Below are positions 34,074 through 36,032 of a DNA stretch of 56,302 bases, in pieces. The notes below the pieces were generated by a model. The model was not told where the DNA came from. It searched no databases and saw only the letters and a list, made by a program, of their open reading frames with translations. The position numbers were made by a program, and so were the translations under genes. Within the stretch, counting starts at the first letter, position 1, and each line of letters opens with the position of its first letter. Source of the stretch: a virus; UHGV virus genome UHGV-0090450, one strand, 5' to 3'.

Positions 34074-34623
34074 AACGAACCTCTTTTAATAAAGTCAAGT
34101 GATAATGAAAGATAAATATTGTAAACGAAAAAACACTGGACTGGAACATATATCTCTGCTTGTAATTTACCCAAGATAATTTTACTAACGCAGTCATAAT
34201 TCGTTCATGTATACCAGATGAAAGTACATGTTCTATGAAATAGGGTTTTGCCTGGAGTTTGAAGGTTTTTAACGATTATACCTGTTTAATCGACTCCCCA
34301 TGTTTTTTGACATTATCCACCGCACACGATACTGGATGCCAGGTAAACTGATTTGCTGGCATAAAGTCACTGAGAATTTTTTACCAACAATATCTTGCCA
34401 CATCTTTTCCCGCACAGTTTCGGCAATAGAATCAGCGGGCAGCGGTCATCAATATTCACCAGACATTGATCTGCCGCACTATCTGACCGGTGTCCTGCTG
34501 AGAATACTAATTTCTTTTTTTGCAAGTGCTGTCCAATCATGATTGGGGGGGGCCGGCGGAGTTGAAACCGCAGGTACGTTGTATGCAATAACGTGCTGCG
34601 GTTTAATCTTATCAATTGAATAC

Positions 34624-35397
34624 TCAAAAATTAGGTGAGTAACGGACCGGGGACATAGCTCCTTTTTTTCTTAATTCATCTGGTATTTTTTTTCCAAGAT
34701 AAAGATTTGCTATTTCAGGTGGGGCTTCTCGACCTTCAAAACCATAGCGAGAACTTTGTGTTGCCTCAAAGTCAGGATCCTCGTCCCAGTATTTCATCGT
34801 AGGGAAATTTTCACGTGTTGATTTGAGCCATTTATCAGCAATAAAAACCCCTCGAACGATACCCCTTACAGTGGCAAGAATGACTTCTGCTTGACTGGCG
34901 CGCGAGGCATTGATGCGCCAGCTAAATCGAACCGCATCATAAAGCTCTGAATCCTTTGCACTTCTGTTAACGGAAATCATTAATGCTTTATGATGAAATG
35001 TTATGGTTTCGGGTTGATATGTTGCTATCAACTCTTTGACATGCGCGGCGCCGAATTCATTGCTGCCAGCACCATTCATGATATTCGTTAACCCAGGGTA
35101 GGCATCAATAAGTGCTGCTTCAACTTCGTACGCCGTCTTTTCATCAGTCATTCCATGTCGATGGATTACATGGATAACTTCAAGTCCCGCTAATCTTATT
35201 TCTCTGATTTGCTTTAGCTTGTTGCTCAGTAACTCGTCATCATCAGCCGCTGCCACTTCACCGCGCATATGGGCAAATACGCGGTTACCTTTGCCTTTCC
35301 CTACATAGAAGGTGCTTCCGTCCCTAGGATCAATCAATCGGTATACATACCAGCCAAGGTGTTCAATTACTCCAGAAGGAAACTCAGTAATATCCAT
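34624..35397 (-). CDS. GIY-YIG-like nuclease domain protein
   Basis: N-terminal [30 protein letters not shown] resembles the GIY...YIG core; ATG at 35397, track ORF starts at a TTG at 35448. Confidence 0.55.
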
Positions 35398-36032
35398 TTT
35401 GCAATATCTGTGAATTATTTGTGAGACGTATATTAATGAACATTGCAAGGGCTCACAACCAGTAGCTTTGAGAAAGCCATCGGGAAAATGAGGCTAACCC
35501 TTTGAATTTACATAGCGCAAAAAGATACCTTTCCTCATAATGTGAGCTAATTTTATGTTTCGTTTGATGATCGGATCGGTCTCGAAACCCGTAGCCACGT
35601 CGTATGCAAGAACGTGCTACGACTGGCTGGTGAACTTCCGATAGTGCGTGTATTGAATGATTTCCAACTGTTATCGATTTTGCGTATTTTTTGCATGAGA
35701 GGATTTTTACCTCCTCCCACCGATCCTCCATGGCTTTACGCCAGTGTCTCTGGTCTGCTATGTGCCAGAAGCGGAAGTTCCCACTATTATGCTCTGCATC
35801 GATACCGGGAAGGTACTTAAGTCCCCCGGTATTCACTGATATTATCCTCCAGCTACCGCAATGCCGCCCAATCTGGTATGGCTTAGCTAGCCAAGTAACT
35901 GCTGGCAGAAAGGCCTCTTCAAGCATACCATCCGGATTTACCGATGAGATTTCCCATCCAGCACGGAAATGATACTTTCTACTGACCCCAGATTTTTACT
36001 AAGACAATAAAGATACTGGATTCAATGAGGGG

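Follow-up and report, generated by a model that had tools for sequence, protein, structure and literature searches.

Accessory genes of temperate phages have been described in several settings. A moron is an inserted gene that is expressed independently, with its own promoter and its own terminator (PMC2629481), and defence hotspots are known in P2-like phages and P4-like satellites (Rousset et al., 2022, cited in PMC11364771). Among the defence genes themselves is PD-T4-3, or CMoRE, whose product has an N-terminal GIY-YIG domain that cuts DNA and a C-terminal domain that senses 5-hydroxymethylcytosine (5hmC) or glucosyl-5hmC, and which protects against phages T2, T4 and T6 (PMC12923530). The stretch of DNA considered here is UHGV-0090450, a viral genome of 56,302 nt (the whole of which is called the window), in which a GIY-YIG gene lies on the minus strand between two related hairpins, hairpin 1 and hairpin 2, with a conserved flank of about 65 nt behind the second (Table 1). 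The reading that we favour, and consider probable, is that these hairpins belong to a family of terminators that insulate cargo genes with an expression of their own (morons) and also act as shared joints at which gene cassettes are exchanged. It draws directly on the identity of the gene, the hairpin family and the covariation of its stems, the T-rich tails, the coincidence of breakpoints with hairpins and the bracketing of a gene in phage lambda, and from these we infer the actual termination, the promoter and the mechanism of recombination.

On its sequence, the gene between the hairpins is the already characterised PD-T4-3/CMoRE, a stand-alone defence nuclease, and not a new gene; its product matches the published protein (Vassallo et al., 2022; PMC12923530; PDB 9U75, 9U7U) over the full length and with near identity, and there is no difference of substance. 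The longest open reading frame (ORF) over the gene runs from 34624 to 35448 with a TTG start, and residues 18–273 of its translation align with positions 1–255 of the 256 in the PADLOC profile for PD-T4-3 (PDLC04031; E-value, 3.8e-140). The annotated product starts at an ATG and has 257 residues, not the 258 given in the first-pass annotation of this DNA, and aligns end to end with the Escherichia coli O157:H7 protein of PDB 9U75 (residues 1–257 against 6–262; E-value, 3.7e-172; ~98 % identity, with a handful of conservative substitutions). The GIY-YIG-like N-terminus recognized in that annotation is confirmed by a match to Pfam LEM-3_GIY-YIG (53.9 bits against a cut-off of 27), and its motif, which reads GWYVYRL...FYVGKG, is that described for CMoRE in PMC12923530 (Nat Commun 2026). 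Calling the C-terminal domain unassigned is out of date: it is the 5hmC-sensing domain of the crystal structures and is included in the end-to-end alignment. Near-identical proteins cleave DNA containing 5hmC or glucosylated 5hmC (5ghmC) and protect against T-even phages (PMC12923530; bioRxiv 10.1101/2024.12.20.629700), the system is active in a native clinical isolate (bioRxiv 10.1101/2024.12.20.629700), and it is also active when cloned with its native promoter (PMC12923530). With function and structure already published the gene needs no further discovery work. The account in PMC12923530 leaves the flanking hairpins and the genomic slot unmentioned, and the word 'prophage' occurs in it 0 times.

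The two hairpins that had been proposed on either side of the gene are indeed present at 34565–34605 and 35584–35625, and their likeness is far above chance. An ungapped comparison of 36 nt (34565–34600 with 35586–35621) gives 81 % identity, and a 22-nt core, ACGTYGTATGCAAKAACGTGCT, is common to both, with no third site in the window at up to three mismatches and 0.00 expected from shuffled sequences. Each folds into a stem of 12–14 bp with a 9-nt loop, and the outer stem differs between the copies by a compensatory change of C-G to T-A (CGCAG/CTGCG against CGTAG/CTACG in direct reading). A covariance model of the family scores hairpin 2 at 64.0 bits and hairpin 1 at 58.8 bits, both on the minus strand, while hairpin 1 read on the reverse strand reaches 15.9 bits and the next best unrelated match in the window 14.7 bits. 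A local duplication or a chance pair of palindromes without wider meaning, set among gaps of plain junk, would fit a window that holds just two copies and a first gap that does carry a pseudogene remnant; we nevertheless give this explanation almost no credence, and it is refuted by the occurrence of the hairpin in lambda, in E. coli K-12 and in thousands of other genomes, at equivalent positions and with compensatory changes in the stem.

The family is extremely widespread in E. coli and its phages. When positions 34074–36032 were compared by megablast with 5426 complete E. coli genomes, 1145 records matched, and hairpin 2 together with about 100–190 nt to its right is present in 5394 of the 5426, at a median of three places and at up to nine. 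The same unit occurs in 191 phage records, which include lambda, HK629/630, phi80, phiP27 and many Shiga toxin (Stx) phages, and K-12 has a family copy in the terminal part of the Qin prophage, upstream of ynfT-ydfK. A scan across genera, made with an exact pattern, gave matches in genuine assemblies of Escherichia and Shigella only (a few longer contigs elsewhere were left aside); most matches in other taxa are tiny low-coverage contigs or contigs of ~48.4–48.5 kb. In this form the element turns up in assemblies of Pseudomonas, Shewanella, Streptomyces, Enterococcus and other taxa (L143, L149 and L171, of ~48.4–48.5 kb; L137, L141, L144, L146, L154 and similar tiny contigs), and such contigs of lambda size or very low coverage outside Escherichia and Shigella are almost certainly lambda DNA contaminating the public records. 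The taxonomic range is thus narrow, and deep phylogenetic conservation is therefore unusable as evidence. A search of the literature for the sequence of the element, for terminators of lambda ea47 and for a lambdoid hotspot at this position found no prior description, and the sequence is absent from the supplement of the Pas small RNA (sRNA) preprint.

Read on the minus strand, which is the direction of the cargo genes, the unit consists of a conserved stretch of ~65 nt, a hairpin with a variable but paired stem, and a T-rich tail. The covariance model has 101 hits in 98 sources, and covariance analysis across homologues, proposed in the first-pass annotation as a check, bears out the pairing: among 55 distinct hits 93.3 % of the stem cells are paired and eight of the 14 stem pairs show compensatory changes, in an alignment that was fitted to the model and hence leans toward structure. 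None of 500 shuffles reaches these values, and sliding the partners lowers the paired fraction to 21–52 %. A hand-made gapless seed of 24 copies gives 93.8 % paired cells and four compensatory pairs. RNAalifold on a MAFFT alignment of 79 full elements returned a helix of four pairs that we regard as spurious because indels had misaligned the hairpin arms, and the gapless seed and the covariance model were used instead. A second class of hairpin with an unrelated loop and an equivalent stem occupies the same place.

The tails are in keeping with termination in the direction of the cargo genes. Over the 10 nt that follow the stem on that strand the mean is 5.3 Ts (examples are CTGCGGTTTTTCTTTTT and GCGGCTTTTTACTTTTT), and at least five Ts are found in 35 of 63 distinct copies, against eight of 63 on the other strand. 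Hairpin 1 looks bidirectional, as a minority of family copies do, with T-rich sequence beyond the stem on both strands (TTTC on the minus strand, UUUC as RNA; TTTAATCTTATC on the plus strand, where the tail reads UUUAAUCUUAUC). It begins 18 nt after the PD-T4-3 stop codon, and elsewhere the hairpin abuts the stop codon of pinE or of the tail-fibre assembly gene tfa from the opposite side. The closest described RNA is CssrB (Rfam RF02799), a Shigella sRNA seen as a transcript of ~180 nt on a northern blot, with a 3′ end set by prediction of a rho-independent terminator (Peng et al., 2011, PMC3071730). Its 3′ terminal hairpin, AAACCGcaGCaCGuCuuAAGCaaGAaCGuGCugCG, is a copy of the family, and at two loci (L024 and L038) complete copies of CssrB, which score about 230 bits, have a family hairpin as their last element. 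CssrB differs in being read on the opposite strand (the plus strand of the window) and in its 145-nt body, which is absent from the window; a consensus family copy scores only 44 bits with the 180-nt RF02799 model, through the shared 3′ hairpin alone, against a gathering threshold of 76 bits. Because of the covariation of the stems, the T-rich tails on the cargo strand and the CssrB 3′ hairpin, we read the hairpins as putative intrinsic terminators that would close cargo transcription units and form the terminator half of a moron layout. A separate Rfam match, to IS009 (RF02111), falls within tfa genes, in their 3′ portion and immediately ahead of family hairpins (L009 1028–1226, L024 2068–2271 and L088 2022–2220) and may be a match to coding sequence rather than an independent sRNA.

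The edges of homology between this locus and others coincide with the hairpins. Breakpoints were read in an evenly spaced sample of the match ranking, 40 rows of the 1145 records, and 29 of these rows carry the PD-T4-3 cassette; in 27 of the 29 the homology begins at the outer edge of hairpin 1 (window position 34563 or 34565), and in most cassette rows of the sample it ends inside hairpin 2, at 35591–35607. Right-hand ends of homology are scattered (35591, 35594, 35607, 35668, 35692 and 35771–35779), and BLAST breakpoints of this kind, at the edge of a shared element, mark where homology ends and not where crossovers took place. The left neighbour of the cassette varies: it may be pinE, whose stop codon directly meets the hairpin, a gene for tail-fibre assembly or, as in the window, a remnant of an SRAP gene. 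The left hairpin is a variant typical of the local context, of pin type or tfa type, and the right hairpin is constant with the cassette. In IMG/VR contigs, pairs of hairpins on the same strand and 1020–1021 nt apart bracket PD-T4-3 cassettes, and there are further same-strand pairs with spacings of 1049 nt and 1589–1603 nt. Cassette-free sites also exist, which consist of pin or tfa, a single hairpin and the flank, and other occupants found beside these elements are a DUF262 protein, a restriction–modification system, nleC/nleG effectors and ydfK.

Phage lambda itself has this arrangement. A copy of hairpin 1 stands immediately behind tfa, and one of hairpin 2, together with the flank, separates ea31 from ea47, such that ea47 is bracketed just as PD-T4-3 is here. 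The noncoding stretches of the lambda b region that correspond to window positions 35690–35775 and 39883–40024 are ~84 % identical. The two differ in the genes that fill the slots, which are unrelated (ea47 against PD-T4-3 and ea31/ea59 against PDC-S06), and in morphogenesis, since the prophage in the window has a contractile-tail, Mu/SfV-like module.

The locus can be compared with each of the described systems, and first with morons. As in a moron, the gene stands at a fixed position at which related phages lack it or have another (the slot is empty in some phages and holds ea47, PD-T4-3, a DUF262 protein or ydfK in others), it has its own leader, and a hairpin of the factor-independent terminator type follows it; the locus departs from the moron pattern in that the terminators on the two sides are homologous copies of one another and the upstream one carries a 65-nt flank, and its promoter is a presumed one. 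The hotspots of P2-like phages and P4-like satellites are alike in the fixed position within a temperate phage and in the interchange of diverse defence genes between conserved flanks, and unlike in that the present position is the tail-fibre/pin end of lambdoid and e14/SfV-like prophages and the flanks are short noncoding hairpins, not core genes. Integron cassettes with their attC sites likewise have one gene per unit and an imperfect hairpin at the boundaries whose structure is kept more than its sequence; here there is no IntI-type integrase, no R and L core sites and no fixed crossover, and the A and T tracts are of the terminator type.

This last likeness raises the question of whether the hairpins could be the sites of a dedicated site-specific system, either attC-like or served by the adjacent Pin-family invertase, with each cassette bringing one hairpin and docking beside a resident one. 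A related hairpin at each end of the cassette is what a hybrid pair of sites would look like, the left one fitting its context and the right one its cassette as after insertion beside a resident site; the stem is also kept better than its sequence, with a recurrent single-base bulge, and the stop codon of the pinE recombinase gene directly adjoins the hairpin in most genomes. We consider this very unlikely all the same. No recombinase gene adjoins the hairpins in the window or in lambda, the right-hand ends of homology do not fall at one point, the order of A-run, hairpin and T-run is the layout of a terminator, and no attC-type GTTRRRY cores stand beside the stem. The known crossover sites of Pin, Hin and Gin are 26-bp imperfect palindromes that require an enhancer, and the hairpins are unlike them. 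Left hairpins typed by context, a constant right hairpin and scattered right ends fit repeated homologous exchange better than a site-specific reaction, and shared short homology at terminator hairpins is accordingly the explanation that we retain.

The flank of hairpin 2 calls for separate discussion, since it is kept whatever lies upstream, in at least five unrelated contexts, in one of which a dinI-like stop codon stands 9 nt before it. In the dinI-type contexts the flank follows the stop codon without an in-frame start. The consensus of flank and hairpin folds as two adjacent stem-loops with a U-tail (z = −5.75), and 7 nt ahead of the first stem stands a TAAAAT motif that hardly varies. 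A second explanation, which we hold to be possible but rather unlikely, is that flank and hairpin 2 (35584–35690, minus strand) constitute a functional RNA, whether a prophage sRNA, an sRNA derived from a 3′ untranslated region (3′-UTR) or a cis-acting element, and that the link of hairpins with cassettes is secondary. Such an RNA would have a 5′ stem-loop (GGCUGG...CCAGCC) with an invariant single-stranded stretch, followed by the terminator hairpin and U-tail. Conservation regardless of context, the consensus fold, the near-invariant motif, the lack of a consistent reading frame through the flank and the presence of the unit, often at several places, in nearly all of the complete E. coli genomes all speak for it, as does the detection of Shigella transcripts that end at these hairpins, though on the opposite strand (PMC3071730). 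Against it, the differing upstream contexts contain no conserved −35 element and the promoter scan of the window is negative; there is no Rfam family for the flank, and neither the searchable literature nor the Pas sRNA supplement contains its sequence. The first stem is 95 % paired and nearly invariant, with one compensatory cell and with shuffles that reach the observed values; as it barely varies, covariation is uninformative here and there is essentially none to cite in support. The narrow taxonomic range means that conservation could be hitch-hiking, and the U-tail, present on many family copies, is weak in the window copy, whose first stem is moreover weakened by wobble pairs. A Chi-like octamer in the flank, GCTGGTGA, was considered and rejected, since it is not conserved across copies and GCTGGTTA, GCTGGCGA and GCTGGTAA also occur. 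The annotation pipeline PGAP at times places an 81-nt 'capsid protein' pseudogene on the noncoding flank (L004 5048–5128, equivalent to ~35610–35690 of the window); this call is probably spurious and propagated from a mis-called protein of the reference set.

A stronger form of these ideas, on which we would not place much weight, makes the hairpin with its 65-nt flank a mobile slot marker of E. coli temperate phages, found in ~99 % of E. coli genomes and in lambda, which either encodes an uncharacterised abundant RNA or actively directs the exchange of cassettes. The RNA in question could be a 3′-UTR-type sRNA or a cis-regulator with the invariant single-stranded stretch GGAAAUCAUUCAAUACUCGCACUAUCG, and should the flank prove functional as RNA, few prophage-borne RNAs in E. 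coli would be more widespread. If the slot-marker proposal is true, there would be a hairpin-delimited hotspot of defence and virulence cargo at the tail-fibre/pin end of lambdoid prophages; a putative second slot that adjoins it is bounded by 31-nt inverted repeats, which lambda has as well.

Several observations weigh against the combination of terminators and shared joints that we prefer, in addition to the limits already given on the model-derived alignment and on the BLAST breakpoints. The window copies are weak terminators by sequence, with UUUC after hairpin 1 and GGGUUUCG after hairpin 2 on the minus strand; their single-sequence folds have modest z-scores (−1.3 to −2.8), and neither was flagged by a simple consensus scan of the window for promoters and terminators. 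The same type of scan found no strong sigma-70-like promoter in the 185-nt leader of PD-T4-3. The loop of the main class, UCUUGCAUACG, shows more conservation than a simple terminator would require, and the high sequence conservation may reflect recent spread and not selection. On balance we take the hairpins to be most probably members of a widespread terminator family at the boundaries of exchangeable cargo slots; features of this kind are known, and the present element is one specific and very common example.

Table 1. Features of the PD-T4-3 locus and its surroundings in the window
Feature	Coordinates	Strand	Remarks
Acyltransferase (Acyl_transf_3)	33006–34073	minus	Pfam E-value 7.5e-25; 'acyltransferase family protein' in matching genomes
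Decayed SRAP (YedK-like) remnant	about 34282–34480	minus	C-terminal ~70 residues with frameshift and stop codons; main content of gap 1
Hairpin 1	34565–34605		Starts 18 nt past the PD-T4-3 stop codon; 12–14 bp stem, 9-nt loop
PD-T4-3/CMoRE	34624–35397	minus	257 aa, ATG start; GIY-YIG type IV restriction endonuclease, modification-dependent
PD-T4-3 5′ leader with presumed own promoter	35398–35583	minus	Accompanies the gene in other genomes
Hairpin 2	35584–35625	minus	Family member, model score 64.0 bits; weak U-tract GGGUUUCG
Conserved ~65-nt extension	35626–35690	minus	Directly 5′ of hairpin 2; consensus TAAAATCGGTAACGGCTGGAAATCATTCAATACTCGCACTATCGAAAGTTCACCAGCC
Noncoding continuation common with the lambda b region (ea31–ea47 stretch)	35690–35780		84 % identity to L012 3602–3687
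AAA/ABC-type ATPase, PADLOC candidate defence PDC-S06	36033–38597	minus	1059 bits; Pfam AAA_13, SMC_N; 854 aa

The long gaps between the minus-strand cargo genes were a further feature of the first-pass annotation, which put them at about 500–600 bp without a credible ORF. They measure 550 bp (34074–34623), 635 bp (35398–36032) and 523 bp (38598–39120), and it holds true that no intact gene lies within them. The suggestion that they may contain gene remnants is borne out by gap 1, in which residues 150–220 of K-12 YedK match in two frames with internal stops (tblastn E-values, 1e-8 and 1e-4), and blastn aligns this SRAP remnant with yedK at ~73 % identity in about 2800 genomes; no remnant of a pin recombinase was found in the gaps (best tblastn E-value, 1.7). 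The suggestion of regulatory RNAs may apply to gap 2, where flank and hairpin resemble in their fold an sRNA or the end of a 3′-UTR, though no conserved promoter was found. The thought that such gaps are odd in a compact phage genome finds no support, because the region is nonessential cargo equivalent to the lambda b region, with conserved noncoding linkers between genes that can be swapped. Decayed gaps and unconserved hairpins together had been named there as the outcome that would refute the observation: gap 1 is a decayed fragment, but the hairpins are conserved far beyond this locus.

Gap 2 is composed of the leader (35398–35583), hairpin 2, the conserved flank to ~35690, a lambda-b-like stretch (35690–35775) and, from ~35750 on, a 3′ flank that travels with the ATPase module. 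The segment 35690–35780 is 96–99 % identical to other prophages, with homology that stops at 35767–35779, and 39883–40024 is ~84 % identical to the lambda sequence between ea59 and int. With lambda-like noncoding stretches in its gaps, the cargo region is therefore, to judge from these alignments, a noncoding scaffold of the lambda-b type that carries replacement genes. The sole sizeable ORF of gap 2 (35453–35926, 157 aa) was rejected as a gene; it has no Pfam or PADLOC match and its frame is broken by stops in lambda, where an annotated 63-aa ORF in the homologous stretch uses another frame. Rfam gave no match at E ≤ 1 in window positions 32000–41000, and ARAGORN found no tRNA in the window and none at the O157 cassette junction in L002.

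The wider context is that of a prophage which combines a Mu/SfV-like tail with lambdoid features and continues into the cargo region, the counterpart of the b region in lambda. The near-identical region of the chromosome NZ_CP098192 has contractile-tail and baseplate genes, tail-fibre and assembly genes, the minus-strand cargo and then an integrase; the cargo order in the window is acyltransferase, PD-T4-3, the 854-aa ATPase and a hypothetical gene, and the cargo has a mol% G+C of 32–47 compared with 55 for the structural genes. The acyltransferase gene, at 32 % G+C, comes directly after the tail-fibre assembly gene and is replaced by IS1 in the closest genome (L001); its product is a typical candidate for O-antigen modification (serotype conversion). 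The ATPase adjoining PD-T4-3 is a candidate defence module, as yet uncharacterised, with no convincing terminator between its stop codon and hairpin 2, and upstream of it the 523-bp gap is followed by a 196-aa ORF (39121–39711) without family matches.

Further repeats and boundaries are found around these genes. A 72-nt direct repeat (32798–32869 and 40029–40100, 79 % identical) flanks the entire 7.2-kb cargo region; in each copy an A-run and a T-run enclose a palindromic, terminator-like hairpin, GCCTCGCAATGGYTTGCAAGGC, and a related sequence follows the 65-nt flank in loci of the Stx-phage type. A 31-nt inverted repeat (35753–35783 and 39879–39909, 81 % complementary) brackets the PDC-S06 ATPase and the hypothetical gene; breakpoints of the ATPase module in other genomes fall on its arms (35747/35753 and 39883–39897), and in lambda ea31–ea59 are bracketed by the same pair of inverted sequences. 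These inverted repeats look like the marks of a second cargo slot with conserved boundaries of its own. Homology with many unrelated prophages ends at 40204/40205, and the last 48 nt (40158–40205), which are 100 % identical in several loci, are probably the right attachment site of the prophage; the tyrosine integrase gene at 40370, together with those that follow (helix–turn–helix, antirepressor and ash-family; 40370–41584), would consequently belong to a second, tandem-integrated element.

Taken as terminators and joints, the hairpins suggest the following picture of the locus. Leftward-transcribed cargo genes occupy slots separated by short conserved noncoding linkers, with PD-T4-3 in the slot that holds ea47 in lambda, and its product would cut phage DNA containing 5hmC or glucosyl-5hmC. 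PD-T4-3 would be expressed from a promoter of its own in the 185-nt leader, which would make it a classical moron; hairpin 1 would end its transcript and, in other phages, also face a convergent pin or tfa gene, and hairpin 2 with the 65-nt flank would end or attenuate read-through from the upstream cargo, here the PDC-S06 ATPase module. Hairpin and flank are common to otherwise unrelated phages and thus provide patches at which homology starts and stops, and homologous recombination across these short stretches of homology would most likely be the route by which cassettes enter, leave or replace one another there.

What is useful is an anatomical rule for lambda-like and e14/SfV-like prophages of E. 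coli, according to which the cargo at the tail-fibre end, be it defence nucleases, restriction–modification systems, type III effectors or cold-shock genes, sits between copies of one hairpin and a short flank. The rule suggests how this cargo is transcriptionally insulated and exchanged, and hairpin and flank together offer a simple sequence handle with which cargo cassettes, unknown defence genes included, can be found and delimited in thousands of genomes.

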